In this document: positions 8,277 to 52,381 of the stretch, piece after piece
How positions within the stretch are numbered: position 1 is the stretch's first letter
How the letters are laid out: every line of letters starts with the position of its first letter
Source: Coriobacteriia bacterium
GTDB taxonomy: Bacteria > Actinomycetota > Coriobacteriia > Anaerosomatales > JBAZZO01
Assembly: GCA_041658765.1 (NCBI GenBank)
Contig: JBAZZO010000013.1
Span: 4,742 to 68,741, forward strand
DNA length: 64,000 bases
Direction: 5' to 3'
The notes under the pieces: model-generated
What the model was told of the DNA's origin: nothing
Seen by the model: the letters and a program-made list of their open reading frames with translations, nothing else
The model's database searches: none
Program-made: the position numbers and the translations under genes

Positions 8277-9560
8277 TCAGTCCACGAGCAGTTCGCGCGT
8301 GGGCGAGAGCGCCCGCACGTGCGCGACGTCGTCCGGATGCAGCGCCCGCAGCCTCCACAGTCCTCTCGACGGGAGCGCGAAGGTGACGACCCATCGCGTC
8401 GAGCCCGCCCCGAGGGTGAGCGTCCGGGCGGGCAGCGACCGATCGAAGCGCCAAGCGCCGCTCACGCGACGGTAGCACAGCAGTCGCACCGCGACGATGC
8501 CGTCCGCGTGGCGCGGCGAGATCGTCCCGTACGCGGTGAAGAGGCGCCCGCGCACCACGCGACCGGGCGCGGTGGGATACCCGAGCGTCACCGGCCCCGC
8601 GCCGCCGTCCGCCGTACGCAGCACCACACCCGCGGAGCCGACCGCCCACGCGCGCGAAGAGCCGGCGACGGCAAGCCCGGCGAGCGCCGCGGTCGAAGGC
8701 ACGGGCTGCGCGATCCATCGCGAGCCGCCCGTGACGGTCTTGAGCACGACGCCCGCGGCGCCGACCGCCCACGCCACGGTCGCGTCGACCGCGCGCACGG
8801 CGCACAGGTCTCGCGCCACGCCGCTCGTCTGGCGCGTCCAGGTGGAGCCGCCGTCGAGCGTGCGCAGGAGCGTCCCGCGGTCGCCGACCGCCCAACCGCG
8901 GCCGTCCGCGGCGAGAGAGACAGCCGCGAGGTCCACGGTCGTCGGTGCCGAAGCCGTCGCCCACGTGCTCCCGAGGTCATCGCTGACGCAGGCGCACCCG
9001 CCGTCCCCGACCGCGACCAGCCTTCCGCCCGCGCGAGCGACTCCCCGCATCGCGCGCCCCTGCCCGTCCACGCGACTCACGGTCCATGTGAGGCCAGCAT
9101 CGGTCGTCGCGATGCACAGCCCGTTCGAGGTCAGCGCGCAGCACGCCGACGGCGCCAGCGATCGCACCGCGGTCAGCGTCGCGGAAGCCGGCACTGCGAC
9201 CGCCGTCCACGTCACGCCGCCGCTTGTCGTGCGCAACAGCGTCGAGTCCGCGCCTGTCGCCCAGCCCTCGAGCGTGCCGGCGAGCATGTCGACCGCGGCG
9301 AGGTCATGGGTCGTGCCGGACGGACGCGCTCGCCACGTCACGCCGCCGTCGGTCGTGCGCAGCACGACGCCGCGCGCTCCGACCGCGACGCCGAGCCGAC
9401 CGGAAGGGAACGACACCGCCGCGAGCCCGGCGCTCGTCGGCGCCGCGACGCGCGACCATCCGACGGCGGCCGAGGCGCTGGCGGGAGTCGCGAGCACGAG
9501 CACGACAGCCAGCCCGAGAGCGACTCGTCTCACATGAGCGGGAGATCGTAGATGCGCCAT
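8277..9560 (-). CDS. Secreted BNR/Ycf48-like beta-propeller protein with shared C-terminal module
   Basis: Signal peptide RRVALGLAVVLVLATPASASA. Repeated BNR-type motifs TDGGVTW, TSGGVTW, TDAGLTW, DDLGSTW, LDGGSTW, VTGGSRW. An alternative GTG start at 9533 overlaps the upstream stop (GTGA). Confidence 0.75.
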   Translation of the reverse strand: MAHLRSPAHVRRVALGLAVVLVLATPASASAAVGWSRVAAPTSAGLAAVSFPSGRLGVAVGARGVVLRTTDGGVTWRARPSGTTHDLAAVDMLAGTLEGWATGADSTLLRTTSGGVTWTAVAVPASATLTAVRSLAPSACCALTSNGLCIATTDAGLTWTVSRVDGQGRAMRGVARAGGRLVAVGDGGCACVSDDLGSTWATASAPTTVDLAAVSLAADGRGWAVGDRGTLLRTLDGGSTWTRQTSGVARDLCAVRAVDATVAWAVGAAGVVLKTVTGGSRWIAQPVPSTAALAGLAVAGSSRAWAVGSAGVVLRTADGGAGPVTLGYPTAPGRVVRGRLFTAYGTISPRHADGIVAVRLLCYRRVSGAWRFDRSLPARTLTLGAGSTRWVVTFALPSRGLWRLRALHPDDVAHVRALSPTRELLVD

Positions 9561-10693
9561 GTCTTGTACCGGTTCGCTCCCATGAACTTCGAAGCGCGGA
9601 GGATCAGGTCGTTGTCCTCGAGCAGCATCGAGATGTCGCACTCACGGTAGTGCTTCGTCCGACCGTACGCGAGCATCTCGTCGAAGAGCAGCGCGTCTAT
9701 GCCCATCCGCCGGAAACCGGGCCGGATGCCGAAGAACATCAAGCGCACGCGCGGGATGCGCCTCCGGAGAGCGAACAGCCTCGCGAGACGGACCGCGTCC
9801 GAGTCGCCGTACCAGCGCCAGCGGGGACGCAGCGCCCAGTTCGGATCGGGAAGCGTGCCGATCATCGCCGCCGGCTCGCCGTGAACGTACGCGAATCGCA
9901 CGAGCCCGGGATCGAGGATCGGCTTGAGGGAGTCGGCGAGCAGATCGGCCTCTTCATCGGTGATCGGGAGGAAGCCCCAGTTCGCGGCCCACGCGTCGTT
10001 GTAGATGCTCACGATGAGGCGCACCTCCTCGCGAAGCCGCGAGAGGTCGGCGCACCGGATCGTGATGCCGCCGCGCTCGCGCACCGCCGCCGCGACGCGC
10101 GTCAGCCGCTCGGAGCCCGTCTCGGCGACGGCGACGCGATACGCGTGGTAGTCCTTCGCCTTCACGAAACCGTACGCCTCGATGAGGTGCCGGTAGTACG
10201 GCGGGTTGTGCGTCAGCTCGACGGTCGGCGGCGTGTCGAACCCGTCGATCAACACGCCCTGGCGCTCGTGCGTCGCGTTCGAGTACTCGCCCGGCCCGCG
10301 CAGGACCTCCATCCCGCGAGCGGCCGTCCAGTCCCGCGCCGCGTCGAGCAGCGCATTCGCGACCTCCTGATCGTCCACGCACTCGAAGAAGCCGAAGAAA
10401 CCGTACCTCCCCCGGTAGTGCTCGTTGAAGCGGTGGTTGATCGCAGCCGAGACGCGGCCGAGCGCCTTGCCGTCGCGTCGGGCGATGAAGTGGGTCACGT
10501 CCGCGGAACGATGGTATGGGTGCGCGGGAGTGAGCAGACCGGGTACGCCGAGGAGCCGGCTGCCGAGAAGATCGGCATTCAGCGGAGGCGTCCAGCACGG
10601 GTCGCCGCGGTTCAACCTCCACGGCAGCCGCGCGAACTCGCGCAACTTCCGGTCGCCGAGCGGGACCTCCTCCACGCGCACGGGACCGGGCAT
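9530..10693 (-). CDS. GNAT-family N-acetyltransferase (about 390-aa type)
   Basis: DPCWTPPL...GFFGFFECVDDQEVANALLDAARDW...NPPYYRHLIEAYGF resembles the widespread long GNAT family. Confidence 0.65.
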   Translation of the reverse strand: MPGPVRVEEVPLGDRKLREFARLPWRLNRGDPCWTPPLNADLLGSRLLGVPGLLTPAHPYHRSADVTHFIARRDGKALGRVSAAINHRFNEHYRGRYGFFGFFECVDDQEVANALLDAARDWTAARGMEVLRGPGEYSNATHERQGVLIDGFDTPPTVELTHNPPYYRHLIEAYGFVKAKDYHAYRVAVAETGSERLTRVAAAVRERGGITIRCADLSRLREEVRLIVSIYNDAWAANWGFLPITDEEADLLADSLKPILDPGLVRFAYVHGEPAAMIGTLPDPNWALRPRWRWYGDSDAVRLARLFALRRRIPRVRLMFFGIRPGFRRMGIDALLFDEMLAYGRTKHYRECDISMLLEDNDLILRASKFMGANRYKTWRIYDLPLM

Positions 10694-11011: not shown

Positions 11012-12055
11012 TCAGCGCACCGTGAAGTACCTCACCACGCTAGTCGCCGCATGGTCGGTGTCCGAGTGCACGGCGAGGACCTTCCAGCGACCTGCGCCCG
11101 CGATCGTGAACCAGATACCGTACCGCGACCCGCCGGCGACGTCCTGCGCCGCCGAGGTCGTGTAAAGGCGCTGGCGCCAGCGGCCGCTCTCGAGCCGGTA
11201 GAGCGTCACGCGCACGACGTTCGAACCCGCGCGGTGACGTGGCCGCAGCGTCCCCCACGCCGTGTAGCGGCGTCCGCGCGCCACGATGCTCGGAACGGCG
11301 GGTGCCGTGAGCGCCGCGCGTGAAGTCACGACACGGATCGGGCTCACGGCGAGCGCGTACGTGTCGTCCCCGGCGAACCCCAGGTAGAAGTACGTCCGGC
11401 GATAGCCGCGCAGCGCCGTCGCATAGCTCCCCGTCGTCGACGTGAGTGTCGCGACCGCGCTCCAGGTCACGTTGTCCGGTGAGGTGTAGAGCGTCACCGC
11501 CCGGCCCGCGATCGGCGCTCCCGCGCCGTCCAGCATCCGGCCGGTGATCGCCACGGTCCCGCCATAGGCGAGGGTCGTGCCGGGGGCCGAGATCGACAAC
11601 GTCGCCGTGTCTCCGTACAGGATCCGGTACGAGCCGGTGCTCTGCCCGGCCTGTGGGATGCTCGCCGCATATATGTCGAGGTAGTAGGTCCCGCCCCCAC
11701 CTTGCGGGACCGTGTAGACGAACCCGTCGACCTCGCCGGCGGCCTCGCGCGAAGATGCGACGGCCTGCGACGCGGTATCGACGCCTGTCACTCCCGGCGG
11801 GAAGAGGTACATGTCGAAGTCGGTGCCGGCGACGTTCGTGTCGGACGGGAGGAGCCAGAAGCGGATCGACTGCCCGGCGGCGAGCGTCACCTGGAAGACC
11901 TGGTCGGCGTCGTCGCCGCTGATGAAGCTGCCCGTGAACCCGGAAGCAGGCAGCGCGGCTCCGGGGAACGCCTCGGCACCTGCCACAGCGGGCAGCAGCG
12001 CGACGAGCAGGAGTGCGGCGGTCAGAACACTGAAGAGACGGCGGAATTGGCGCAT
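11012..12055 (-). CDS. Secreted protein: PPC (pre-peptidase C-terminal)-like domain + shared C-terminal tandem beta-sandwich module
   Basis: Signal peptide MRQFRRLFSVLTAALLLVALLPAVAGAEA. PPC-like DDADQVFQVTLAAGQSIRF...TDFDMYLF. The C-terminus is shared with four other proteins (see findings). Confidence 0.65.
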   Translation of the reverse strand: MRQFRRLFSVLTAALLLVALLPAVAGAEAFPGAALPASGFTGSFISGDDADQVFQVTLAAGQSIRFWLLPSDTNVAGTDFDMYLFPPGVTGVDTASQAVASSREAAGEVDGFVYTVPQGGGGTYYLDIYAASIPQAGQSTGSYRILYGDTATLSISAPGTTLAYGGTVAITGRMLDGAGAPIAGRAVTLYTSPDNVTWSAVATLTSTTGSYATALRGYRRTYFYLGFAGDDTYALAVSPIRVVTSRAALTAPAVPSIVARGRRYTAWGTLRPRHRAGSNVVRVTLYRLESGRWRQRLYTTSAAQDVAGGSRYGIWFTIAGAGRWKVLAVHSDTDHAATSVVRYFTVR

Positions 12056-12206: not shown

Positions 12207-12872
12207 TCACTTGATCAGATGTGGGCTGGGCCTGTGCACCAGGTCCGCGACGAGCACGTAGCGGCGCGGTGCGTTGCCGATGTAGTAGAACGGGTAGCAG
12301 GTGCTCACCGTCAGGACGGCGTGGTCGGTCGGCACGATGACCGTCCTGTCGTCCTTGTCGACGATCCGGATGCGCCGGATCTCGTAGTCGAATCTCCCGG
12401 CGGACGTCTGCGTGACGAACCGATCGCCTATCTCCAGATTGCCAAGTCTCCTGAAGACCGTGTCGCGATGTCCGGAGAGGACGCAGTTGTCCGTCTGCCC
12501 GGGCAGCACGCTCTTGGTGTAGTGCCCCACGCCCCTCTTCAGATCGTCCTCGTCGGTCCCCTGGATGATCGGCAGGCTCTGCCCGAGGGCCGGGATCGAC
12601 AGGACCCCGATGGTGTCGCCCTGCGCGGGGTACTTCGGGTACAGGGCCCGGTCGGGATCGGGCGTCTCGGACGACCCGCTCGGCTCCGTCGAGACGGTCG
12701 TGCTGGAAGAGGGATGCCGGTAGACATCGGCGGACCGCACAGACTGCGCCCTGATGTTGATCAGCGCCAGGAAGATGAGGCCTATCCCGAGGACCAGCAG
12801 CCCCAAGGACAGTCTGGAGACGAGGGAGGACTTGTCCCGCGACGATCTCGGCCTATACCTCGGCCTATACAT
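12207..12872 (-). CDS. Sortase (class D-like)
   Basis: N-terminal TM, catalytic His (VLSGHRDT), Cys (LTVSTCYPF) and Arg (APRRYVLVADL). 8-nt overlap with the upstream LPNTA-bearing gene. Confidence 0.85.
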   Translation of the reverse strand: MYRPRYRPRSSRDKSSLVSRLSLGLLVLGIGLIFLALINIRAQSVRSADVYRHPSSSTTVSTEPSGSSETPDPDRALYPKYPAQGDTIGVLSIPALGQSLPIIQGTDEDDLKRGVGHYTKSVLPGQTDNCVLSGHRDTVFRRLGNLEIGDRFVTQTSAGRFDYEIRRIRIVDKDDRTVIVPTDHAVLTVSTCYPFYYIGNAPRRYVLVADLVHRPSPHLIK

Positions 12873-13851
12873 GTGCCTTTCTGGTTCCCCAGAGGCCGGC
12901 AGCCCCGATGAGCGTCAGGACAGCGCCTGCGAGGAGGACGTTGTACCAAGGTGTGGCGGTGTTCGGGAGCACTCCCCCGCTGTCTGTCGACGGGACGACG
13001 TCCTCGCCCGGACCAGGTGTCGGCCCGGGCGTGGGTGTGGGCGTGGGTGTGGGCGTCGGTGTGGGCGTCGGAGTTGCAGCCGCGCAGACTCCGTTCGTGA
13101 TGGTGTTGGTGTCCAGCGTGACCGAACCGTTCCGGGCCAGAAGCTGTCCCTGCACCGTCGCACCGGTCTGGGCCGCGATGGACGTGAGCGCGAAGATGTG
13201 TCCCACGAACTGGGAGTTGGTCCCCAGGGTCGCGGAGCTTCCGACCTTCCAGAAGACCCGGCAGTACCGGGCGCTGTTGGTGAGACTGACGACACTGCCC
13301 GCGAATGTGACGAGCGTGGTGTCCGTCTGGAACACGAAGACACCATCGGGATCGCCCTGGGCGTCGAGCGTTAGAGTCTGGCCCGCCGCTATCTCGAACG
13401 TGCCGCTGTTCGAATGGTAGACGCCGGGGATCAGGGTCTGGCCACCAAGCTCGGTGTCGATGATGGTGGGCGTTCTTCCCGCGGCGTCGTCATATGCGGT
13501 GATCAGATCGTTCTTGGCATCGAGCGCGACGGCATCGGCCAGGTGCGTGGTCCCATTCGCCAGTGTCACGCTCGCCTGCCCGGTGAATGCGGGGTTCGGA
13601 TGCGACCCGACGTCTCCGCCGGCATCTCCGCCTATCCAGGTCGTTCCGGTATTGGTGATCCCCTGGCCGGACAGGATCGCGAAATTGGAGGTCGATCCAA
13701 GGAGCACCGGAGCTGCAAAGCTCACCGCAGGTAGTGCGATCATGACTGCCAGAAAGAACGCCAATAGCAGCGATACGTGCCGCAACCTGCTCGGTGTCGC
13801 CATCGATCGGCTCACTCCCCCCGCATTCGTCTTTCGTGGACGCGCCTTCAT
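12865..13851 (-). CDS. DUF3494 (ice-binding-like) surface protein with (TP)n linker and LPNTA cell-wall sorting signal
   Basis: LGSTSNFAILSGQGITNTGTTWIGGD...VFWKVGSSATLGTNSQFVGHIFA is the DUF3494 signature. The C-terminus is TPTPTPTPTPTPTPTPGPTPGPG...VLPNTATPWYNVLLAGAVLTLIGAAGLWGTRKAHV. Confidence 0.8.
   Translation of the reverse strand: MKARPRKTNAGGVSRSMATPSRLRHVSLLLAFFLAVMIALPAVSFAAPVLLGSTSNFAILSGQGITNTGTTWIGGDAGGDVGSHPNPAFTGQASVTLANGTTHLADAVALDAKNDLITAYDDAAGRTPTIIDTELGGQTLIPGVYHSNSGTFEIAAGQTLTLDAQGDPDGVFVFQTDTTLVTFAGSVVSLTNSARYCRVFWKVGSSATLGTNSQFVGHIFALTSIAAQTGATVQGQLLARNGSVTLDTNTITNGVCAAATPTPTPTPTPTPTPTPGPTPGPGEDVVPSTDSGGVLPNTATPWYNVLLAGAVLTLIGAAGLWGTRKAHV
13011..13074 (-). repeat. Imperfect hexanucleotide tandem repeat encoding the Thr-Pro linker
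   Basis: ggtgtcggcccgggcgtgggtgtgggcgtgggtgtgggcgtcggtgtgggcgtcgg on the plus strand corresponds to (TP)n/GP on the minus strand. Confidence 0.8.
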
Positions 13852-13899: not shown

Positions 13900-14325
13900 C
13901 TAAGGCTCATGGCAAGCTCGAGACTTTAGCGTGCGCCCACCGGCCCACAGCTCGCAGCGGTACTCCACACAAAGGGGGGCGCGATACTCCCGCGGCAGCA
14001 GACAGCCCGTGTCCGGGTGGCAGAACTGGCACTTCCTCGTGTCGATCCAACCCGGAAGGCTCGCCCTGTAGGCGGCGCCGTCCTCGGTGGGAAGGTGACT
14101 GAGGCGCGGGTCGTGCAGAGGCGGGACGCCAGCGACGCCGGGACCGTATCCGCCCTCACTCAGCGCCAGTGCGCCGCTCGCGACGAAGCGATCCAGCCAC
14201 TGGTCGATGTACTCGGGCAGCCAACCCTCGCCGATGTATGCCCCGTTCTCGTCGTGTGCCAGGTACAGACAGCAGCACAAGCCGCCGCAGGCGTGGCAGA
14301 ACTCGAAATCCGCGTCCTTGGGCAA
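13900..14325 (-). CDS. YkgJ-family cysteine-cluster (zinc/iron-chelating) protein
   Basis: FCHACGGLCCCLYL is a CxxCGxCC signature, with a second Cys cluster CQFCHPDTGC...CVEYRC. TTG start at 14325 preceded by GGGAGG. The rest of the 557-aa track ORF crosses a tRNA and is rejected. Confidence 0.6.
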   Translation of the reverse strand: MPKDADFEFCHACGGLCCCLYLAHDENGAYIGEGWLPEYIDQWLDRFVASGALALSEGGYGPGVAGVPPLHDPRLSHLPTEDGAAYRASLPGWIDTRKCQFCHPDTGCLLPREYRAPLCVEYRCELWAGGRTLKSRACHEP

Positions 14326-14360
14326 ACGAGCCTCCCGCTCCGGAGCGGACTGGTTGTTCC

Positions 14361-14435
14361 TGGTGGGCGATGAGGGATTCGAACCCCCGACTTCTTCCGT
14401 GTAAAGGAAGCACTCTCCCGCTGAGTTAATCGCCC
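14361..14435 (-). tRNA. tRNA-Val (anticodon TAC), CCA encoded
   Basis: The reverse complement reads GGGCGATTAACTCAGCGGGAGAGTGCTTCCTTTACACGGAAGAAGTCGGGGGTTCGAATCCCTCATCGCCCACCA. The anticodon loop is TTTACAC. Confidence 0.88.
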
Positions 14436-14510
14436 GCGCGCGGTCCGGGCGCGAGAGCGCCCGGCGATCCCGCCAAGTGTCGCATAGGCGCAGGTCGCGC
14501 GCCATGTGTG

Positions 14511-16484
14511 TCAGTAGCAGTTGAAGAACGTCGGGCGAGAGATCGAGTAGGCGTGGCCCGCTTCGGCGTGGTCGGCGGCGACGTACCATCTGCCGGTGCC
14601 TCTGACCCAACAGCGGGCCGCGAACCGCGTCCATGTGCCCGAGTAGTAGTACGTCGTCGCGGGGACCGTGCCTCGAAGCACCCACCCGTTCCACTCGTAG
14701 TGGAAGAAGCGGAAGTTGACGGTCCTCCGGCCCACTGCATGCCGCGGCGAGATATAGCCGGTGGCGAGGAAGATCTGGCCGCCGTAGACGGCCCCGGGCA
14801 CCGAAGGGGCCGTCAGGTTGTCGCGGATCCCGATGCTGACACTCCGACTGATGACGTCGCGATAGGGGTAGCCGCCGAGGAAGCGGGCCCGGTAGTTCGT
14901 GGGTCTCGTGATCGCCGGCATGGTCCTGACGGCCTGGCCGCCGCCCCCGGTCGTCGTCGTCCCGACCGTCACCCAACCGGTGCCCGGGACATACCTCTCG
15001 AAGCGGATGGGCTTTCCCGGCAGCGGGAAGACGTACGTCCCGATACTCGAGCCGCCGCCCGGGAAGTACCCTCGCAGGATCGCCGTCAGCGTCACTCCGG
15101 TCCCACCTATCACCGAGGTGACCGGGGCGGTGAGCTGGATGCCCGTGTCGTACCACTGCGGCGGCGGAGGGGTCGCCTCCACCGAGAACCTGACGGTGTG
15201 CTCGCTCTCGACGTTGCGGGCGAAGTCGGCCGCCCAGTACCGGAGAACATGGTTGCCGATCCCCGTGGCCACCTCGACGGAGGCCGACGTCGTCGTCTGT
15301 TCGGTGAAGGTGTCGAGTCTCCAGTTCAGCTGCGCGACGCCGCTCCCTTCGGCACCATCGGCCGAGGTCAGGCGTATCGTCGCGCTTCCGACCCTCGTGG
15401 TCACCTCGGAGCGCGACACGGGCGGGGTGTTGTCCGGCCGCGAGTTGATCTTCCGGAAGCGCTGGATCCGATTGCCGCCGTCGACGATGAAGACGTAGTC
15501 GCCGACCACATCGACGTCGGTCGGCCACCACACCTGTCCCAGAAGACCGTCGGTCCCGTTGACGCCCAAACACTCCACAGGGCCCGTGTTGCCCGATCTG
15601 AGCGTCCCGGCCGCATACCTCACCACGCCGGACGTCTCAGTGGAGGCGCCCGGTTCGGCCACGAAGAGGTTCCCGTCCGCGTCGAGCGCCATACCGCGCC
15701 GCCTGGGTGTCGAGCGGCCGAAGCTGAAGTAGTGCCGCAAGGGAGGTGTGAAGTAGGGGATCCGCCCGCTCTCGGACACGTAGATCGTGCCGTTCGTGGC
15801 GACGACGGCGCAGTTCGGGACGTTGAACCCCGTCCAGCCGAAATAGCTGCGAAGGACGACCGTGGGCGACGGGGGGTAGTCCACCCCCGTGTAGGAGTCG
15901 AGGAGCACGCCCTCGGGACTGTACTTCCGCAACCCGTCCGCGTCTTGGACGGTGTAGATGCTGCCGTCCGGGCCCACGGCGAGTCCCGGCCACTCCATCG
16001 AGAAGTTCGTGGCCGATCTCGGCGTGCTCCACGAACGCACGATCTCGCCGGTCGTGGTGTACGCCACGACCTTGTAGTTGTCGGAATCGGACAGCGCGAC
16101 GTAGAGCAGACCGTTCGGATGCCAGACGATGTCGCGTGGCCCCATGTAGTAGTAGCCGATAGGGCCGCCCGATGTCGGGAAGGAGCGGACGAACGTGCCG
16201 TCGGAATCGAAGACTTGGATACGCGCGTTGTTCGTGTCGGAGACGTAGAGACGGCCCGACGAGTCGTGGGTGATGTAAGATGCGCCGTTGAACTGCCCGG
16301 GAGCCGACCCCGTCCCGCCCCAGACAAGCTCCGGGACGTAGGCCGCCGATGCCACGGAGGGCGCGAACGCGGCGACCATCGCGAGCAAGAAGACGGCGAC
16401 CCGCAGCGAGGCGCGAACGAACCCCCGGGGGAGCCGGTGGAGGACGGTCTCTGTCGAGGCGGAGCCGGACGACATGTCGCCCAC
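14511..16484 (-). CDS. Secreted NHL-repeat beta-propeller protein with OmpL47-type repeat and shared C-terminal module
   Basis: NHL-type blades (GQFNGASYITHDSSGRLYVSDTNNARIQVFDSDG; GPDGSIYTVQD; DADGNLFVAEP; DYVFIVDGGNRIQRF), then DNTPPVS...LTSADGAEGSGVAQLNW, then the C-terminal module. Confidence 0.8.
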   Translation of the reverse strand: MGDMSSGSASTETVLHRLPRGFVRASLRVAVFLLAMVAAFAPSVASAAYVPELVWGGTGSAPGQFNGASYITHDSSGRLYVSDTNNARIQVFDSDGTFVRSFPTSGGPIGYYYMGPRDIVWHPNGLLYVALSDSDNYKVVAYTTTGEIVRSWSTPRSATNFSMEWPGLAVGPDGSIYTVQDADGLRKYSPEGVLLDSYTGVDYPPSPTVVLRSYFGWTGFNVPNCAVVATNGTIYVSESGRIPYFTPPLRHYFSFGRSTPRRRGMALDADGNLFVAEPGASTETSGVVRYAAGTLRSGNTGPVECLGVNGTDGLLGQVWWPTDVDVVGDYVFIVDGGNRIQRFRKINSRPDNTPPVSRSEVTTRVGSATIRLTSADGAEGSGVAQLNWRLDTFTEQTTTSASVEVATGIGNHVLRYWAADFARNVESEHTVRFSVEATPPPPQWYDTGIQLTAPVTSVIGGTGVTLTAILRGYFPGGGSSIGTYVFPLPGKPIRFERYVPGTGWVTVGTTTTGGGGQAVRTMPAITRPTNYRARFLGGYPYRDVISRSVSIGIRDNLTAPSVPGAVYGGQIFLATGYISPRHAVGRRTVNFRFFHYEWNGWVLRGTVPATTYYYSGTWTRFAARCWVRGTGRWYVAADHAEAGHAYSISRPTFFNCY

Positions 16485-16598
16485 CTCCTATCGAGGCTGG
16501 CGTCTCTTGAGCCCTAGCGTACTCCGTCAGCTCCGGAAGGCGAAACGTCGCACTTCAGAGCTGAGCTCGGGCCTCGCCGATCCCCTGATGCCGAGAGG

Positions 16599-16976
16599 TC
16601 AGCCCGCCGTCTCGCGGAACTCGACGCCCTCCATGCCTTTGAAATGCGCGTCCTGCGTCCAAAGGACAGCGTTCTCCGCACGAGCGGTCGCGAGGATGAT
16701 CGCATCGGCCATGGCGAGCCCTGTCGCCAACGACAACCGGGCCGCGTCGAGCGCGAGTGTCGAGGACAGCTCGACGACCCTGCCCTGCAACATCGCGCCG
16801 ACCGCCTCGAGGGCTTTCGCCTCGCCCGCGAGCTGGCACGTCCGCTTGAAGACCTCGAATAGGGCCAGTGAGGGAACGACCGACTCTTCGGGCGATTCGA
16901 TGACTGCGGAGAACTCGCTCGCATTCGGGGCGTCGCCGAAGTACTCGAGCCAAGCGGATGAATCGACGACGTTCAC
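16599..16976 (-). CDS. vapC: VapC PIN-domain toxin
   Basis: MNVVDSSAWLEYF...ADAIILATARAENAVLWTQDAHF matches PIN acidic residues. 4-nt overlap with the antitoxin. Confidence 0.85.
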   Translation of the reverse strand: MNVVDSSAWLEYFGDAPNASEFSAVIESPEESVVPSLALFEVFKRTCQLAGEAKALEAVGAMLQGRVVELSSTLALDAARLSLATGLAMADAIILATARAENAVLWTQDAHFKGMEGVEFRETAG

Positions 16977-17182
16977 ACCCTGTCCTCCCGGTCGCGCTCG
17001 AAACTCGTATCGAGACCTCGGAGCATGCCCCGAAGCTGGCTGACCGGCCTGACCGGCAGGAACTCGATGCGATCGCCGTACGCCAGAGCATGCACCTTCT
17101 GGCCGGGCACGAGCTTCAACTGCTCGCGAATGGACTTCGGGATGACGACCTGGAACTTAGGCGAGATGGTCACGGTCTCCAC
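16973..17182 (-). CDS. vapB: AbrB/SpoVT-type VapB antitoxin
   Basis: VTISPKFQVVIPKSIREQLKL. GTG at 17182 preceded by AAGGAGGTG is preferred over the track ATG at 17206, which lacks an SD. Confidence 0.75.
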   Translation of the reverse strand: METVTISPKFQVVIPKSIREQLKLVPGQKVHALAYGDRIEFLPVRPVSQLRGMLRGLDTSFERDREDRV

Positions 17183-17210
17183 GGCGCACCTCCTTGTGCT
17201 ACGCATAGTC

Positions 17211-17257
17211 TATCGATAAAGCACCTGACTAACAACTAGCTGGTCGATGTTATCGAT
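17211..17257 (-). promoter_or_regulatory. Repeated TATCGAT(A) palindromic boxes upstream of vapBC; candidate operator
   Basis: tatcgata at 17211-17218 and tatcgat at 17251-17257, plus gtcgatg at 17243-17249, in an AT-richer intergenic stretch. Confidence 0.35.
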
Positions 17258-17454
17258 GCTGTTTGTGGAGCGGAGGGACCGGCTTGCTGCCGAGTCATGC
17301 GCGCCTGCAATGACCCGGCCGACGTCCTTTCGAGTGGCGCCCAGAACAGGTCGTAGGTGGTGGCCCTACCGGCCGGCGTCGTCCAACATGCTTGGGCGAC
17401 AAATCCGGGGCGCTTCTCCGGCGCCCGCGGTCATCGACCAGCATCCCCTGCGGC

Positions 17455-18270
17455 TTAGGTGAGACCCTTCCACGGCTCGCCGGGAAGACGGGCGATCAGT
17501 TGGTCGTGCACGAGCGACGCTGCGGCGTCGACGTCGTATCCCGCCGGGTCGCGAAGCAGTGGAATCACGTCGACGCGGAAGTCGGAAGACGCGAGCTTTC
17601 CCACCATGTTCGCCTCGAACTCCGCGCGCGAGATCGAAGTCTCCATTCGCGCCAGGTACTCGCCGAGACACTCCATGATGTGCGCCTCATTCAGGTCGAG
17701 GGTGGTGAGTCCGAGCCACAAGTCGTAGAGGTCGCGCCCCTTCCGTCGCTGGAAGAGCGCCCTCATCTTCGTTGCCAACATCTCTTCCAGCGTGAACGTG
17801 GTGACCAGCTCGTCGGCGGAGTGCCACGGGCTCGATACGGCGAACGGCATATGCTGCAGCCCATCGACGCTGAAGTGCTCCCGAGTATTGATCTCCACCT
17901 TCACCCGCATCCGCTGCACGGGCAATGCGGTGGTCTCGAATCGGTAGAGCAGCTTGGCGCTGTCCGGGCGCTGCTCCCAGTTCGGGGCCCCCAGCCACGG
18001 ATCTAGCGCCTCGCGCAGCTCTCCGAGCACCGGGCCGATCGGACCGGCCTCGACCTGCACGAGATCAAGGTCCTCGGAGTAGCGCCCCGGAGGATCGAAG
18101 TGGAGCTTGTGCAGCGCGGTCCCGCCGCGGAAGGCGAGCGCGTGGCGCAGGGATGGACGGCCGAAGATCGCAGTCAGCGCTCTCGACAGGATCAGGTCCT
18201 GCTCGACTTGCTCGTCTTGGGGCCATGGCGCAGAAGCTCTCCACGCCGTGATCTGGGCTCGCGGGATCAC
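17455..18270 (-). CDS. AbiEii/AbiGii-family nucleotidyltransferase toxin (type IV TA)
   Basis: LAFRGGTALHKLHF...RYSEDLDLV is the AbiEii NTase signature. 4-nt overlap with abiEi. Confidence 0.85.
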   Translation of the reverse strand: MIPRAQITAWRASAPWPQDEQVEQDLILSRALTAIFGRPSLRHALAFRGGTALHKLHFDPPGRYSEDLDLVQVEAGPIGPVLGELREALDPWLGAPNWEQRPDSAKLLYRFETTALPVQRMRVKVEINTREHFSVDGLQHMPFAVSSPWHSADELVTTFTLEEMLATKMRALFQRRKGRDLYDLWLGLTTLDLNEAHIMECLGEYLARMETSISRAEFEANMVGKLASSDFRVDVIPLLRDPAGYDVDAAASLVHDQLIARLPGEPWKGLT

Positions 18271-19073
18271 AGATCGATCTCCACTTCCAGGTTCGGGATC
18301 ACACGCCAGGGACTGACTGCATCGGCGCCGGCCCGAGGCGCATCGGGAGCAAGCGCAACCGGCCGATACCGCTTGGAGCCAAGGACGCGGAGCAACGGGT
18401 CGGCGAGCCGGGGCTGGCCCGCTCGGTCCAAGAGGTAGCCGAGGCGCTGGATCTCGGGGGTCTTGCGCAGTTGCGCAACAGAATACAGGGCCTCCGGCTC
18501 AAGGCGCTCGGCGAGTTCAAGCAGCACCGTCGCGACGTTGCTCAAACCACCGCAGGCCGCCGAGAAGCGCACGAGATCGAACGCCGTCGACTCGGGCGTG
18601 GACACGAACATGGTGCCGGTCTCCGTCTGCATCGCGACAGCGGGGGTCTCGGCGACAGAGCCGCTCATGTGGAAGGTGATGCGCGCGCGTCCGGCCACGC
18701 CCTCGCGGGTGGGACGGTCGGTGACGACCTGAAACGTCATCGGCTGCTGATGAGAAGCGCCGTGGATGGCCGCTGCGGATAGCAACCCCACGTAGTAGGG
18801 CTGATCGAGGAACCGCATCAAGTCGTCGATGAACCACGACGGCGGCGAGCCGGCCGTGATGTACTCGGTAGGCACGATCACGTAGAACCCGCGACGCGGA
18901 GTCACTATGCGACCGCGCTTCTTGAGCCGGCGCAGTGCGTTGTCGACCGCTATCTCAGACGTCGGCAGCGCGGCCCGCGCGTCGGCGTGAGAGAACGTGT
19001 AGGTCCCCGTTGCCTGAAGCTGTTCGACGAACGCCGAGACCTCTTCAGGGGCTGTCACTTCTTGAATCGCCAT
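18267..19073 (-). CDS. AbiEi-family antitoxin/transcriptional regulator (type IV TA)
   Basis: N-terminal wHTH region (NALRRLKKRGRIVTPRRGFYVIVP) and C-terminal YYVGLLSAAAIHGASHQQP, typical of AbiEi. Confidence 0.85.
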   Translation of the reverse strand: MAIQEVTAPEEVSAFVEQLQATGTYTFSHADARAALPTSEIAVDNALRRLKKRGRIVTPRRGFYVIVPTEYITAGSPPSWFIDDLMRFLDQPYYVGLLSAAAIHGASHQQPMTFQVVTDRPTREGVAGRARITFHMSGSVAETPAVAMQTETGTMFVSTPESTAFDLVRFSAACGGLSNVATVLLELAERLEPEALYSVAQLRKTPEIQRLGYLLDRAGQPRLADPLLRVLGSKRYRPVALAPDAPRAGADAVSPWRVIPNLEVEIDL

Positions 19074-25729: not shown

Positions 25730-26134
25730 TCAGCCGAGCCCGGCGACGCGCCGCAGACCCGACACCAGGGGGTCGGCCACCGTGGAGAGCGCGACGGAGA
25801 GCGTTCCCGCCACGACGACCGCGGAGAGCCAGCCCGTGCCGTGGGTGACGCGGTGTCCGACGAGCACGCCCGCGCCCGCGGGCAGCGCGTATCCGAGCGC
25901 GAAGCCGGCCGCTCCCCAGAGCGCGACGAACGCCCACCCGGCCCGGGCGAAAGCGAGCGCGCGGACCCCGTCGCCCGCGAGCCACGCGAGGACGAGCACC
26001 GCCCACCCCCACGCGACGCGCGTGCGACCGGCGCGCGGGTGACCGGCGAGCGCGGCGCACGCGATGGACCCGGCGGCGGAGGCGAGAGGGTTGAACGCGG
26101 CGCCGAGCGCGAGCGCCGCGACACCGTCCTTCAC
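25730..26134 (-). CDS. Small hydrophobic membrane protein inside the pur operon
   Basis: GTG at 26134 overlaps the purF stop (GTGA). 134 aa, Ala/Gly/Leu/Trp-rich with about 4 TM segments. Confidence 0.45.
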   Translation of the reverse strand: MKDGVAALALGAAFNPLASAAGSIACAALAGHPRAGRTRVAWGWAVLVLAWLAGDGVRALAFARAGWAFVALWGAAGFALGYALPAGAGVLVGHRVTHGTGWLSAVVVAGTLSVALSTVADPLVSGLRRVAGLG

Positions 26135-30179: not shown

Positions 30180-30220
30180 GACGTTCCCTTCCTTTGCCGG
30201 TAGGTTCTTCACGAGCGGCG

Positions 30221-46801: not shown

Positions 46802-48934
46802 CTAGTGCGCCGCGGTGGCGGCGAGAGCGTTCGGGTCGTCGTGTGCCGTGTCGGAGTACCCGGCGTGACAACCGCGCTGCGCGCTCGTCCCGCCGCAGCT
46901 GGTGAGCCACCGGCCGAAGATGTTCCCGGTGCGCGCGTGACACCCGGCCGTCATGCACCCCGTCTCCACGTGCACCCTGCTCAGGTCCGTCGTCGTGTGG
47001 CAGGTGCGACCGTCACCGCAGTACCCGGGCTGGGCGACGCCGCTCGGCGCGCGCTCGACGCCGACGTGCGCGGCGTCCCTTCCCCTGTGGTAGCCGGTCG
47101 AGCCGTGGCAGGCCGCGCACGCGGACCGGGAGTCGCGGGCGGTCCATCCGCTCCTCACGCGCGACGCGGTCGTGGAGCTGTGGCTGTGACAGCGCACGCA
47201 GAGCGTGCCGGAACCGCGGGCGATCCTCGAGTTCGCGCGGGCGTGCTCGAGACCGAGCACCATGCTGTGGCACGAGCCGCACGTCATGCCCAGTGTGGTG
47301 GCGGGGTCGACGTAGACCGCGTCCCGCTGCGCGTCTCCCGCGATGTGGGAGTCGTCGCGACCATCGAAACGTCCGAACCTACCGTCATGCACGGACGTCC
47401 GCGGGTCGTACTGCCTGCCGCGAGAGTGACAGGCGCGCCCAGAGCCGCAGGTCTTGTCCGACGGGTCGTAGGCTCGGTTGTCGCCCGCCCTGTGGCGGTC
47501 GTGGCAGCGCATGCAGTCACGGTGGAGGTACGATCCCGCGCCGACCCGCGAGAGATCCCCGGTCGGATGACAGCCCGCGCCCGTCGAGGCGCACCCCGTG
47601 CTGCGCGAGGCGTGGGAACCCATGGCGGCGTGCGCCGCGGAGAGACCCTTGCGGCCGTGGCAAGCCTCGCACGCGTCGCGCGTGTCGCGTGCCGACCAGT
47701 CGTTCGCGATCGCGGCCGCCGAGGCGGGGTTGTTGTGGCAGTTCCGGCAGTTGTCGCCTGGGACCTTCGAGCGCCTCGAAGTCCGCAGCGCGTGTTCGTC
47801 GGTGAGGCTCGTGCCGTTCGGAGACATCAGATGGCACGATCCGCACGAGATGCCCCGGAAGGTGTAGGACGCCGCGCGGCGCGACTTCGGCGCGTGCAGC
47901 GAGCGGTCCTTCTTGTGTGTATACGACGTGTTGAGGTAGCTGCGATGGCAAGGCGCGCCCACGGTCCCGCCGCAAGCGGTCACCGTCGGCTCCATCGCCT
48001 GCACCTTGAGGACGTGGCAGCCGGGCTCGCCCTTCTTCGCCGAACCCGAACACTTCGCGGGCTTGGCGGGATGAAGAGCGTGGACGTCGTTCGCGACATG
48101 GCAGCCGGACCCGGTACGTCCGCATCCGAGTTCTCCCGAGGCCACGACCGTTCCCGCCACCGATGCCGAGTGCATCGGCGACGAGGCACCCTCCCTGTGG
48201 CAGTCCTCGCAACGGCGCTTCTTCCAGTCGGAGAGCACCTGCGTCAGACCGAACGATCGCGTGTCGTTGTGGCACTCGCCACAACCGAGATCGCGCCCGT
48301 AGACGCTGCCGGCGACGGTCGGCACTCCCGAATGCGACGTCCTCAGGTCGCGGGAATGGCACTCGTCGCACGACGCCTTCGCGCTACCGCCCTTCACCGC
48401 GTGGACGGGCTGGGTCATGTCGGTCCCCATGGCGGTGTGCGTCGCCTCGCGATAGTGGCCCCGGGGGAACGGGTCGGATATGCGCACCCGGTCGACCGGC
48501 ACCTTCTCCGAACCGTCATGGCACGCCGGGCACTCGTCCTCCTTCAGGTAGTGACACGGGATGCAGCCGACGCCCTGGTAGTCGTGGCAGGGCACGCATT
48601 TCGCATCCTTGTGGTACGCGTTGAAGTCGCGGTAGGACGTCTCGTCCCCGTGGCATCCCTTGCCGGAGTTGGTGCAGCCGCTCTCTCGGACGGGATCGTA
48701 GTCGCTCGCCTTGGTGAAGGAGTGGACCTTGCCCGTAGGAGGGTTCCAGACGGCGGAGAAGACGACCGCCGCGACGATGACGAAGACAAGCCCGGCTCGA
48801 CGCAGCCTCGTGGCGCGCACTTCCTTCGCCAGACTCTCCGAACGGTTCGGTTCCCGCACCGGCGTACCCCCTCCGCGCGCGTGAGGCCGGACCTCACGCA
48901 CTCTCCCAACAGAATGATATCCCGAAAGCATCAT
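46802..48934 (-). CDS. Membrane-anchored multihaem cytochrome c (22 C-Xn-CH sites)
   Basis: One N-terminal TM ([17 protein letters not shown]). 13 CXXCH (CVPCH, CIPCH, CPACH, CDECH, CGECH, CEDCH, CGSCH, CRNCH, CEACH, CMRCH, CGSCH, CVRCH, CAACH) plus 9 CX4-10CH. All 44 Cys are in such pairs. Confidence 0.85.
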
Positions 48935-48959
48935 CTTGGGGGCATCACTCGGCCGTGAC

Positions 48960-48968
48960 TGCTATACT
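48960..48968 (+). promoter_or_regulatory. Extended -10-like element TGCTATACT in the divergent cytochrome intergenic region
   Basis: tgctatact lies 43 bp upstream of ATG 49012. Confidence 0.3.
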
Positions 48969-49011
48969 CGCCTCGGGGTACGAGTCTCGCTCGATCGGAC
49001 GGAGGGGACCG

Positions 49012-49926
49012 ATGAAGAACGTATCGATCCGTACGCGGATCCTCGGTGGCATCGTGCTCGTCAACCTGCTCGGCGCGCTCGTGGTGATGGTCTACCTCCA
49101 CCAGTCGTTCTCGGGCGGCCTCGACGTCGCGTCGAAGAAATCGATGAGCGTGTCCTTGAGCGTGTGGAACGACGTCACATCGCACACGGGCAAGCCTATC
49201 GACTTCGCGAGCCTGTACAAGGACGGCGGATCCTACCTCGAGCGCATGAAGCAGGTGACCGGCTCCGAATACGGCCTGCTCCTCGACAAGGCGGCGACCG
49301 ACGCCCAGTCGTACGAGAAGCTCCGCTCGGCTGCGAACCTGCCCAACGACTGGGACGAGCGCGAGAACAGCGTCCTGTCCGCCGTGACCGATCGCGGCCT
49401 CGCCGACCGGATGACCATCGGCGTCGACTCGGGCTCCATACCCGAGATCGGGAAGATGATCGGCATCGAGAACGGCGCCTGCTCGAAGACGTGCCACGCC
49501 GGCGTCAAGGGCAAGGGCGACTTCTGGGGCGTCTCGTGGAGCGACGACTCGCGCAGCCGCGCGCATGCGGTCTTCCCGGTCGCGGACGCGGCGGGGAAGC
49601 CCCTCGGCCTCGTCTACTCGATCGAGGACATCTCGGCCCAGGCGGACGCCGACAAGGGATCACTCTATCGCACGTTCTTCATGATCATCACCACGCTCTT
49701 GATCGCCACGGCGGTCATCGGCTACATGCTCGACGCCCTCGTCTTCAAGCGTCTCAACCACATGATCATGAGCATGGAGGACCTCTCCATCCGCGTCGCG
49801 GGCGGTGACTTCGGCGCCCACTTCGAGACCGACGGCACCACCGACGAGATCGGAAGGTTCCAGCAGTTCTTCGCGAAGTTCCTGGACCTGATGTCGTCGA
49901 CGCTCGACGCGCTGCTCAAGAAGTAG
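49012..49926 (+). CDS. Two-TM sensor-like protein: extracytoplasmic haem-c (CXXCH) domain + HAMP, no output domain
   Basis: TM1 ILGGIVLVNLLGALVVMVYL. Outer domain with NLPNDWDERENSVL...GACSKTCHAG (resembles the Tll0287/DUF3365 haem-c sensor). TM2 FFMIITTLLIATAVIGYML. HAMP FKRLNHMIMSMEDLS...TDEIGRFQQFF. GGAGGGG SD. Confidence 0.65.
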   Translation: MKNVSIRTRILGGIVLVNLLGALVVMVYLHQSFSGGLDVASKKSMSVSLSVWNDVTSHTGKPIDFASLYKDGGSYLERMKQVTGSEYGLLLDKAATDAQSYEKLRSAANLPNDWDERENSVLSAVTDRGLADRMTIGVDSGSIPEIGKMIGIENGACSKTCHAGVKGKGDFWGVSWSDDSRSRAHAVFPVADAAGKPLGLVYSIEDISAQADADKGSLYRTFFMIITTLLIATAVIGYMLDALVFKRLNHMIMSMEDLSIRVAGGDFGAHFETDGTTDEIGRFQQFFAKFLDLMSSTLDALLKK

Positions 49927-49951
49927 CACGCCCGGGACTCGGGGAGGGTTC

Positions 49952-52381
49952 ATGACAAGGACCAAAGGGGTCGCGCTAGCCGTTGCGGCGGCGGCGCTCG
50001 TCCTGGCACTGCCCGCGCTGGCCGACGGCGTACCGGTGACCTACAACGCCTACGGCCGCGCATTCGTCGGGCGGGGCTGCTCCGACCAATCGGGCGGGAC
50101 CGGCCTGGGCTGCCATTCGACGGGCCGCGACGGCGCGAGCATCGTCAACAGCGACACCCCGCACCACAAGATGGTGCAGGACGTCCGCGCGCATCCTTCG
50201 GCCCTCCTCCCCGCGGCGTCCGCATCGGGAATGTGGCCGACGCCGACGTTCGGGACGGGCCTGCGGGTCTTCCCCTCCAACATCGCCTACATCATCGGCG
50301 GCTCGAACCTCGGCAAGGAGTACGTGCTCATCCCGGGAAGCGCCATCACGGCGGGCTACGGACCCACGAGCGTGCCGTTCCCCTCTGGCGCGCCCGCCGA
50401 CGACCTGCCCCTCCTCAACGGCTGCAACGGCGCGTACGAGAACGGCGCATGGACGTGGGCGGCCGAGGGTGTCGTCGGCGTCAGCGCGTATTTCCAGCGC
50501 TGCGGAGGCTGCCACAATCTCGGCGTCACAAGAGCGGCGAACGCCACGTACACGCTCGGCGACGGGGTGGCCACGATGGGCCGTTCGACGCCGACGACGG
50601 TCGCCGCGCTGAGCATCCTCTGCGAGGTCTGCCACGGCACGGGCCGCGAGGGCGGGCGCTGCGGCGTCGAGGTCGCCGCGTGGACGACGGCGGGCCCGCG
50701 GCCGATCCTCTCGTCTCGGGTCTGCGGCCAGTGTCACGTGACCGGCACGGCGCGCGAGACCAACTACGCCGGGAGCGGCAAGTTCTCGAACCCCAACGGC
50801 TACACCGTCGACCAGACGCTGACCGCCTACTTCGACGTCGCGAGCACGGTGCCGAGCGAGGGCGGCTTCGTCGCGGGGACCGGGAGCAGCGCCAGCAAGT
50901 TCTACCCGAATGGCGCCAACCAGACGATGCGCCACAGCTACTACAACGAGTGGCTGAAGACGGGGCACGCCAAGACACTCACGAGCCCGGGGAACAACGT
51001 GCTGAATGCCGCCCGGGGCCGCGTGAAGTGCCTGCGTTGCCACACCGGCGAGGGCTTCCTCGACTACATCGGCGCGAGCATCGTGCCCACACAGTTCGAC
51101 GTGACGTTGACCACCTTGCCCGTCAGCGGGCGCTGGACGACCAACGCGATGTACGCACAGGAGTGCGTGATCTGTCATGTCTCCCACGACTCCAGGTCGG
51201 GACTCGGTAGAAGGACCAACCAGCGGACCGGTAGGCGCGTCTCCTGCGGGGACTGCCACAACTGGCAGTACGAGGTGCTCGAGACGACGATAACCTCCAA
51301 CTACGACCTGCCGATCTCGAGCTACCGTTCGGGCAGCGTGCGCGTGAGCCACCCGAACCGCGAGATGCTCGCCGGCCGCGGCCTTCCCGAGGTCACGCTG
51401 GGCGAGGAGTTCATGCCCGGGGCCAGGTGCTCCGGATGCCACATGCCCGACACCGCCCGCAACGCGCAGCGCCCGAGCCACCGGTTCCTGCCGATGGAGC
51501 CGGGCGACGCCGAACGTTGGCAGGTGAAGGAAGAGGGCGACTCCTGCACGCCTTGCCATCCCAGCTTGAGTCGCGAGAGCCTGCAGGAGAGCATCGAGGA
51601 GTGGAAGGACACCTTCGCGGCCGGCGATCGGACCGCGTCCGCCGCCATCGACGCCGGGTACCTGCGTGGCTTCGCGACGTCGTCGGCGACGAACTGGATG
51701 CTCTACAAGAAGGCCTATCTCATCCGCTCGTATCTCCGCAACGACGGCAGCTCCGGCGTCCACAATCCACCGTACGCGGCGGCCGGGTGGGCGAAGGCCG
51801 CGTACATGGCGAAGGCCATCGGGGGTTCGGTCTCCATCGCGGACGCGGGCGGCGGCACCTACATCTGGGGGACCGTCTCGTTCGGCGACGGCACGGCCGT
51901 CCGCGAGCAGGTCGTATCCGTCGAGGCGAAGCCCTACGGCGCCACGGGCTGGGCCACTCTCTCGAGCACGAAGACCGACTCGGCGGGCCGCTATTCCGTG
52001 AACATCGCCCCGACCGTGAACACGCGCTACCGCGTCGTATGGCGCGTCACGTCGACGGAGCGGATCTCCAGCTCCGACCGTCTCGTCAGCGTCCGGGCCC
52101 GCACGAGCCTCGTCGCCACGCCCTTCATCGTCCCGTTCGGACGGGCGTTCACGCTCACCGGGAGAGTCACCCCCGCGCAGGCCGGCAGCGTGGTCATCCA
52201 GTACCGCCCCAGCACATCATCCGTGTGGCGCACGCTCACCCGGCGGACGCTCTCCGGGACGGGCACCTTCGCGTATCGCCTGACACGCGCCCGCGGCGCA
52301 TGGTGGTTCCGCGCGACCTGGGCGGGCAACGCCCGGTATGCCGGTTCGACGTCCGCCCCCGTGATCGTCTTCGTCCACTGA
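49952..52381 (+). CDS. Secreted multihaem cytochrome c (8 CXXCH + 1 CX10CH) fused to the shared C-terminal surface module
   Basis: Signal peptide VALAVAAAALVLALPALADG. CGGCH, CEVCH, CGQCH, CLRCH, CVICH, CGDCH, CSGCH, CTPCH plus CSDQSGGTGLGCH. NrfA-superfamily-like helix DGSSGVHNPPY. Two beta-sandwich domains at the C-terminus. Confidence 0.85.
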   Translation: MTRTKGVALAVAAAALVLALPALADGVPVTYNAYGRAFVGRGCSDQSGGTGLGCHSTGRDGASIVNSDTPHHKMVQDVRAHPSALLPAASASGMWPTPTFGTGLRVFPSNIAYIIGGSNLGKEYVLIPGSAITAGYGPTSVPFPSGAPADDLPLLNGCNGAYENGAWTWAAEGVVGVSAYFQRCGGCHNLGVTRAANATYTLGDGVATMGRSTPTTVAALSILCEVCHGTGREGGRCGVEVAAWTTAGPRPILSSRVCGQCHVTGTARETNYAGSGKFSNPNGYTVDQTLTAYFDVASTVPSEGGFVAGTGSSASKFYPNGANQTMRHSYYNEWLKTGHAKTLTSPGNNVLNAARGRVKCLRCHTGEGFLDYIGASIVPTQFDVTLTTLPVSGRWTTNAMYAQECVICHVSHDSRSGLGRRTNQRTGRRVSCGDCHNWQYEVLETTITSNYDLPISSYRSGSVRVSHPNREMLAGRGLPEVTLGEEFMPGARCSGCHMPDTARNAQRPSHRFLPMEPGDAERWQVKEEGDSCTPCHPSLSRESLQESIEEWKDTFAAGDRTASAAIDAGYLRGFATSSATNWMLYKKAYLIRSYLRNDGSSGVHNPPYAAAGWAKAAYMAKAIGGSVSIADAGGGTYIWGTVSFGDGTAVREQVVSVEAKPYGATGWATLSSTKTDSAGRYSVNIAPTVNTRYRVVWRVTSTERISSSDRLVSVRARTSLVATPFIVPFGRAFTLTGRVTPAQAGSVVIQYRPSTSSVWRTLTRRTLSGTGTFAYRLTRARGAWWFRATWAGNARYAGSTSAPVIVFVH

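Follow-up and report, generated by a model that had tools for sequence, protein, structure and literature searches.

A basic C-terminal immunoglobulin-like module shared by secreted proteins of Coriobacteriia-like Actinomycetota: a candidate non-covalent envelope anchor

WXL domains (PF13731) of Lactobacillales and Bacillales are C-terminal regions of about 120–190 residues that are carried by diverse exoproteins without LPXTG motifs, bind the cell wall non-covalently and are encoded in gene clusters (PMC5817068). SLH and CWB2 are modular, non-covalent anchors found on many surface proteins of a single organism, with conserved arginines that contact an anionic secondary wall polymer, and the GW (SH3-8) domains of Listeria, which are basic and C-terminal, keep otherwise acidic surface proteins bound to anionic lipoteichoic and teichoic acids (PMC5817068). 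Here we describe a C-terminal module of about 104 residues that is common to four secreted proteins encoded in a 64,000 nt stretch of a Coriobacteriia bacterium (GCA_041658765.1, contig JBAZZO010000013.1, positions 4,742–68,741; 68% G+C), referred to below as the window. In Lactobacillus, S-layer proteins have basic wall-binding regions at the C-terminus that likewise hold acidic proteins on anionic lipoteichoic and teichoic acids. If the module is an anchor, its closest functional analogues would be the non-covalent wall-binding modules of Firmicutes (WXL, SLH, CWB2 and GW), none of which is homologous to it. WXL shares the logic proposed for the module, being C-terminal, attached to diverse exoproteins and encoded by clustered genes, but it shows no sequence match at E ≤ 1, occurs in another phylum and has experimental evidence of binding, whereas binding by the module is inferred. 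SLH and CWB2 differ in having other folds, in forming triplets that often lie at the N-terminus or at either end of the protein, and in lacking any sequence match, while the GW and Lactobacillus regions have SH3-like or other folds, are repeated, come from Firmicutes and likewise showed no homology.

The first-pass annotation had proposed that one C-terminal module is shared by five signal-peptide proteins of the window, which we refer to as BNR, PPC, NHL, Ig7 and the cytochrome. The five C-terminal ranges listed there translate as described, that of the cytochrome on the forward strand and the other four on the reverse strand, and Sec-type signal peptides can be read directly from the sequence at the start of all five proteins. 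Pairwise BLASTP, with the six-frame translation of the whole window as the database, showed that the C-terminal ~104 residues of BNR, PPC, NHL and Ig7 are homologous and mutually significant (31–39% identity over 66–104 residues, E 1e-5 to 6e-12), so that the proposal holds for these four; no further open reading frame (ORF) in the window matched the module. The first carrier (nt 8277–9533, reverse strand, 418 residues as called) is a secreted BNR/Ycf48-like β-propeller protein (Pfam PSII_BNR, E 2.6e-28) with a signal peptide, in which the module (nt 8277–8591, 104 residues plus the stop codon; isoelectric point (pI) 11.7; BLASTP E 6e-12 to 2e-7 against the other three copies) directly follows the propeller. 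The second (nt 11,012–12,055, reverse strand, 347 residues) is a secreted protein with weak Pfam PPC and Big_1 matches, and carries its module at nt 11,012–11,326 (pI 11.8). A secreted NHL-repeat β-propeller protein (nt 14,511–16,475, reverse strand, 654 residues; Pfam NHL, E 1.2e-9), which also has one OmpL47-type barrel (NCBIfam barrel_OmpL47, E 2.2e-9), is the third, with its module at nt 14,511–14,825 (pI 9.9). The fourth, Ig7 (nt 27,564–30,179, reverse strand, 871 residues), is a secreted protein with seven OmpL47-type β-barrel repeats (barrel_OmpL47, E 8e-82 in seven stretches) and a module at nt 27,564–27,878 (pI 10.8). The PPC and Ig7 proteins are identical to MFA5844803.1 (WC971_08250) and MFA5844820.1 (WC971_08350), both annotated as 'MAG: hypothetical protein [Coriobacteriia bacterium]', where MAG stands for metagenome-assembled genome, and both encoded on a 70.4-kb contig that is also present in ENA and Logan assemblies. 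All four modules, encoded on the reverse strand, end 0 residues before the stop codon. A PRH motif is present in BNR, PPC and NHL and reads PRY in Ig7, and an H-x-D-x-x-H motif is found in BNR and PPC, is varied in NHL (HAEAGH) and is lost in Ig7.

Upstream of the module there is often a second domain, as had also been noted for four of the five proteins. A profile hidden Markov model (HMM) of this domain, iterated on members of the wider family described below, found it in PPC, NHL, Ig7 and the cytochrome and not in BNR, where the module stands without a preceding immunoglobulin (Ig)-like domain. In PPC it is a Big_3_5/CarboxypepD_reg-like Ig domain (nt 11,327–11,578, reverse strand; HMM E 8e-24, with weak Big_1 and CarboxypepD_reg matches), in NHL an Ig-like domain that carries an insertion and gave a partial match (nt 14,829–15,026, reverse strand; E 2.6e-13), and in Ig7 a Big_3_5-like Ig domain (nt 27,879–28,142, reverse strand; E 5e-25). 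Across the family the HMM matched 93 of 128 upstream regions, and the domain is mostly basic (median pI 9.8). AlphaFold2 (AF2) modelling of the Ig7 preceding domain in tandem with its module gave a mean predicted local distance difference test (pLDDT) score of 93.8 and a predicted template modelling (pTM) score of 0.82; because of this pTM, the model suggests that the two form a fairly fixed two-domain unit. Between them, an L-T-x-P-x-V-P 'linker' had been described in three proteins. PPC, NHL and Ig7 do contain the motif, and BNR has LGYPTAP at the same position. The stretch is not a linker, however, but belongs to the module as its conserved first strand, in which P9 is conserved in 98% and P12 in 87% of the family. 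The first ten module residues have a mean AF2 pLDDT of 82 and the next ten one of 95.

The family was defined by an exhaustive HMMER profile search of 1.84 billion cluster representatives, which returned 2139 representatives at E ≤ 1e-3, of which 1391 reached E ≤ 1e-10 and 26 reached E ≤ 1e-30. The BNR, PPC, NHL and Ig7 proteins rank among the top members, with PPC and Ig7 identical to members P0010 and P0011. A word-indexed protein search with module profiles gave one match and otherwise short fragments, and a single window module found no match among GTDB representative genomes, so that the genome from which the window comes is not one of these representatives. When the same genomes were scanned with two conserved peptides taken from a tight sub-alignment, 39 loci in 20 assemblies were recovered, and a subsequent search of these loci with the module HMM gave 52 module-bearing ORFs, 13 of them outside the scan targets. 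Family hallmarks are YL(T/S)xPxAP, GYLKPRH, LPYxGxWRxRAYHxDxxHA and a terminal V(R/K). The position of the module is extreme: it ends no more than five residues from the C-terminus in 138 of the best 150 of the 2139 matches, and 0–5 residues (mostly 0) before the stop codon in all 51 complete locus ORFs. Module genes are often adjacent, in runs of up to four. Signal peptides were found in 29 of 43 locus ORFs by a crude scan limited to ATG starts. A domain census of 79 full-length members found PPC (13), CarboxypepD_reg (10), PSII_BNR (7), NHL (5) and Peptidase_S8 (5) as the passengers, with FG-GAP, fn3, Phytase-like, SdrD_B and other domains besides, and no known wall-anchor domain among the 25 most frequent of 80 families. 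Profile building and a scan of relatives had been suggested as the way to define the carriers and their range, and the outcome is a set of diverse signal-peptide proteins with an extreme C-terminal bias.

The family also proved to be lineage-specific, as had been predicted. Nearly all source genomes are Coriobacteriia-like Actinomycetota MAGs from soil, sediment and subsurface metagenomes. The 20 assemblies, all of them MAGs, are labelled as Coriobacteriia (7, including one labelled Slackia heliotrinireducens), unclassified Actinomycetes/Actinobacteria (7), 'Thermoleophilia' (2), 'Eubacteriales' (3) and a Deltaproteobacteria contig (1). As the 'uncultured Eubacteriales' loci (L007, L021, L023, L029 and L034) have 64–68% G+C, these labels suggest mislabelled Actinomycetota bins. 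When the neighbouring genes within 3 kb on either side of the 39 loci were clustered, the two largest 'families' proved to be out-of-frame readings of the module genes, and apart from these only an ABC ATPase recurred, at five loci.

A strictly terminal β-sandwich on diverse secreted cargo recalls the C-terminal domain of the type IX secretion system (T9SS), which is likewise Ig-like, ~80–100 residues long and placed at the extreme C-terminus. That domain is a secretion signal of diderm Bacteroidota and is cleaved by PorU. Size, fold, position and the diversity of cargo would all agree with a sorting domain that serves as the recognition tag for a dedicated machinery of export or attachment and is afterwards cut off, but the module shows no sequence match to the T9SS domain, and neither Por_Secre_tail (TIGR04183 and the Pfam C-terminal domain models) nor any other sorting-signal model matched in the Pfam and NCBIfam scans. 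No machinery genes recur within 3 kb of the 39 loci, the carriers already have ordinary Sec signal peptides, and the lineage has monoderm relatives (PMC9686372), all of which makes such a sorting function highly improbable.

The module of the four window proteins had no match to any Pfam or NCBIfam model at E ≤ 1. Scanned alone, the modules of the 79 full-length members gave no consistent model, the best being DUF2914 (10 members, E ≥ 0.006) and Big_3_5 (PF16640; 2 of 79, best E 6e-4), and the gathering threshold of Big_3_5 (35.5 bits) was not reached. CarboxypepD_reg (PF13620) and Big_1 (PF02369) did not match the module itself; the preceding domain of PPC scored 18.4 and 21.7 bits against them, below their cut-offs of 32.3 and 34.9. 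The Pfam wall-binding domains SLH, CWB2, CWB1, LysM, WXL, SH3b/GW, SPOR and PGB were absent from all five window proteins at E ≤ 1, and were not among the 25 most frequent of the 31 families that matched the 79 modules at that threshold. Structure prediction and a Foldseek comparison, both of which had been recommended, were carried out, the prediction on the PPC copy (nt 11,012–11,326). AF2 returned a confident, all-β, Ig-like model (pLDDT 92.3, pTM 0.81), Foldseek found only generic Ig-like, macroglobulin and antibody domains in the PDB (E ~1e-4 to 1e-6, template modelling (TM) scores 0.45–0.70), and a sequence-profile search of the PDB gave a single non-significant match (E 0.88). Big_3_5, Big_1 and CarboxypepD_reg domains are, like the module, Ig-like β-sandwiches of ~90–100 residues. 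Big_3_5-type domains, however, occur anywhere in a protein and in tandem arrays, whereas the module is strictly terminal and strongly basic, has hallmarks of its own and stays under the Pfam threshold. Profile–profile alignment (hhalign) relates the module family distantly to the preceding-domain family (87%, E 4e-6). We read the module as a specialised, strongly basic derived branch of Big_3_5-like bacterial Ig domains and, judged by sequence, it is a real, undescribed and lineage-restricted family distinct from the common generic Ig or CarboxypepD_reg domains. The first-pass annotation had held that its proposal would fail if the module were such a generic domain with no bias towards C-termini, or if a fusion reporter carrying it were released to the medium. 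Leaving the reporter aside, neither a Pfam or NCBIfam match nor a lack of C-terminal bias was found.

A generic Ig-like fold at the end of a protein could also be purely structural, serving as a stalk, a stabilising cap or a folding aid with no role in targeting, and its charge could simply reflect the arginine-rich composition of high-G+C genomes. The distant relation to the ordinary preceding Ig domain, the mostly basic character of that domain and the generic nature of the structural neighbours speak for this explanation. A spacer, however, would not be limited to the extreme C-terminus, nor would about 20 of its surface positions stay conserved among 1391 diverged clusters, and its account of the charge depends on the copies described next.

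The median pI of the terminal modules is 10.5 and that of the rest of the same proteins 5.1. In the window the modules range from pI 9.9 to 11.8 and the PPC, NHL and Ig7 passengers from 4.2 to 6.6. The final residue is lysine or arginine in 111 of the 135 modules counted. Conserved Lys/Arg columns are 28, 30, 39, 44, 53, 54, 68, 80, 82, 84, 99 and 104, with R80, R82 and R84 alternating on strand F according to the strand pattern of the model, and conserved aromatic columns are 21, 43, 50, 63, 66, 69, 81 and 100. Four further residues, H31 (94%), H87 (75%), D89 (86%) and H92 (81%), lie in the B–C and F–G loops, which we take to be neighbours at one pole of the sandwich, as in Ig-like folds generally. 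Two members, P0002 and P0003, have internal copies of the fold that are acidic (pI 4.6–6.8), while the terminal copy of P0003 is basic (pI 10.8), and both proteins retain the PxH and RHxDxxH motifs in every copy. Since the internal copies are acidic and the motifs occur throughout, charge in these sequences tracks the terminal position and the His/Asp motif tracks the fold. The retention of H31, H87, D89 and H92 in the acidic copies makes a role as a structural or metal site within the fold more likely for them than one as a charge-based binding determinant. Composition alone, for the same reason, fails to explain the charge: the lineage has acidic internal copies of this very fold, and the remaining parts of the proteins are acidic too. 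A purely structural end domain is in our view decidedly unlikely.

P0002 (locus L046, nt 4642–8348 of a Coriobacteriia-like contig; 1073 residues) contains at least seven tandem acidic copies of the module fold. It was considered as an exception to the terminal rule, but its last repeat goes on in another frame, which suggests that the tail is a frameshift or an assembly error. The gene adjoins a NiFeSe hydrogenase fragment and a multihaem cytochrome. The existence of proteins with 7–8 tandem acidic copies in the same lineage (P0002 and P0003) raises the idea of protein–protein docking, in which terminal modules would attach to an S-layer or scaffold in the manner of cohesin and dockerin, possibly with the involvement of the tandem-copy proteins. 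Electrostatic pairing between basic terminal and acidic internal copies is conceivable, and the module genes do cluster. Docking nevertheless seems improbable, and more so than a structural role, given that no partner or recurrent neighbour gene was seen within 3 kb of the 39 loci and that proteins with at least seven copies are rare (2 of the best 150 matches).

Because the module is terminal, is attached to diverse exported passengers with no other anchor, occurs as several paralogues per genome, is restricted to one lineage and has a charge that depends on position, a retention or targeting module is indicated rather than a spacer. The positive charge of the terminal copies fits binding to an anionic component of the envelope. 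We tentatively favour a non-covalent anchor to an anionic envelope polymer, and consider it a little short of an even chance. In such a scheme the carrier would be exported by the Sec pathway and its signal peptide cleaved, after which the terminal module, usually with the basic Ig domain ahead of it, would bind the polymer non-covalently and so retain the acidic passenger (propeller, protease or repeat protein) at the surface of a monoderm, Coriobacteriia-type cell. The polymer might be teichoic-acid-like or another secondary wall glycopolymer, and binding would fall to conserved basic (Arg/Lys) and aromatic residues such as the R-x-R-x-R ladder of strand F. Cultured relatives in the Anaerosomatales have a wall of the Gram-positive type (PMC9686372). 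More tentatively still, the family may represent a new class of non-covalent wall anchor by which the set of proteins displayed on the surface of uncultured Coriobacteriia-type Actinomycetota is defined, with the His3-Asp site and the arginine ladder recognising a lineage-specific anionic wall polymer.

Several points weigh against an envelope anchor. No partner or wall-polymer-synthesis gene recurs within 3 kb of the 39 loci, and the fold, with only generic Ig and macroglobulin neighbours, yields no functional hint. The passenger of the BNR protein is itself basic (pI 9.3). Since terminal copies had supplied the query profile, the basic terminal subtype is over-represented among the best 150 matches. 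Finally, a basic Ig domain could equally bind anionic material outside the cell. This last point amounts to a different explanation, an outward-facing adhesion or substrate-binding module comparable to a C-terminal carbohydrate-binding module or an adhesin tip, whose ligands might be minerals or clay, humic substances or acidic polysaccharides, extracellular DNA or other cells. The same pattern of charge and aromatic residues would apply, the organisms come from soil, sediment and the subsurface, and the passengers are adhesin-like propellers and repeat proteins; cultured relatives, moreover, attach tightly to ferrihydrite (PMC9686372). Outward binding has no obvious need for the very last position in the protein, which was seen in 51 of 51 locus ORFs, and carriers with signal peptides of the signal peptidase I type and no other anchor would be lost to the medium. 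Ferrihydrite, besides, is not anionic at neutral pH. We consider outward binding unlikely, although better placed than a structural or docking role.

Should the module prove to be an envelope anchor, a simple sequence tag would make it possible to read out the surface proteins (proteases, propellers and adhesin-like repeat proteins) of a widespread group of Actinomycetota from soil, sediment and the subsurface that has hardly any cultured members. The few non-covalent wall-binding domains of Gram-positive bacteria would gain a new fold, and the module would be a candidate display tag; if the new anchor class is real, the module HMM would predict the whole surface-protein set of these organisms.

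Covalent attachment by sortase was also considered. None of the five proteins has an LPXTG-type signal, as had been reported, since their C-termini lack such a motif together with the hydrophobic segment and basic tail that should come after it. The sequence LPYTG in Ig7 was examined as a cryptic sorting signal and rejected: it is the conserved E–F turn within the fold (L75-P76-x-x-G79) and is followed by charged β-strands, with no hydrophobic segment. The window does encode a sortase (nt 12,207–12,872, reverse strand), and its gene overlaps that of a secreted DUF3494/ice-binding-like protein (nt 12,865–13,803, reverse strand) with a (PT)n linker, an LPNTA motif, a transmembrane segment and an RK tail, which is likely to be its dedicated substrate. 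With its own LPNTA substrate adjacent, the sortase is unrelated to the module, and a tie between the two is rejected. At another locus (L047, nt 5527–5973), an exosortase (EpsH-family) gene adjoins that of a 967-residue S8 peptidase on a contig that also encodes a module protein. A link was discounted, as the exosortase gene does not lie beside a module gene and the module proteins have no transmembrane tail. Neither the peptidase nor a 1531-residue neighbour carries the module.

The cytochrome had been taken as a fifth, more divergent copy, and the module was thought to place it on the same surface as the other carriers. It is a secreted multihaem c-type cytochrome (nt 49,952–52,381, forward strand; 809 residues) with eight CXXCH motifs and matches to Cytochrome_C7, MtrC-MtrF and C552, and it is not a module carrier. 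Its C-terminus matched the four modules by BLASTP only at E 0.7–11, and an HMM built from the four did not find it at E ≤ 10. Profile comparison instead places the terminus with the preceding-domain family, with the last ~85 residues giving an hhalign probability of 96.9% (E 1.7e-10) and an HMM E-value of 3.6e-9; the values against the module family were 65–74% and E ~3e-5. The terminal domain also lacks both the PRH and the H-x-D-x-x-H motif. Its Big_3_5 score (29.3 bits, E 1.3e-6) is under the curated cut-off, though it is listed as a precomputed match, and it is probably a distant Big_3_5 member. By these comparisons the cytochrome ends in two generic Big_3_5-like Ig domains and not in the module, the first at nt 51,839–52,099 (forward strand; preceding-domain HMM E 5e-12, pI 9.7) and the second at nt 52,124–52,372 (forward strand; pI 12.0). 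The notion of a shared surface location is thus unsupported by homology, which corrects an attractive idea, namely that a cytochrome for extracellular electron transfer is tied to the module. By analogy, this very basic Ig tandem could act in a similar way to the module.

A second multihaem cytochrome (nt 46,802–48,859, reverse strand; 685 residues) has an N-terminal membrane anchor and no Ig domains. Together with a 304-residue membrane protein without a Pfam match and the 809-residue octahaem cytochrome, it forms a cluster (nt 46,802–52,381), adjoined by genes for a GT2 glycosyltransferase and MscL, that is possibly an extracellular electron-transfer module. Extracellular electron transfer has been discussed for the Anaerosomatales (PMC9686372).

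The gene for the 871-residue Ig7 protein lies within a string of purine-biosynthesis genes (nt 26,131–32,476, reverse strand), between FGAM-synthase-like (purL-like) and purF-like genes, and its stop codon overlaps the start of the purF-like gene by four bases, an odd site for a surface-protein gene. The NHL gene is adjoined by two toxin–antitoxin-type pairs (nt 16,555–19,073), AbiEi/AbiEii and MazE-like/PIN. On its other side, between it and the gene for the sortase substrate, lies an ORF for a cysteine-rich protein of 201 residues (nt 13,900–14,505, reverse strand; CxxCGGLCCC...CxFCHPDTGC) with no Pfam match on record. Potassium transport is encoded between 32.5 and 41.5 kb by a complete kdpFABC operon, which is accompanied by a KdpD-like sensor and by another histidine kinase/response regulator pair.

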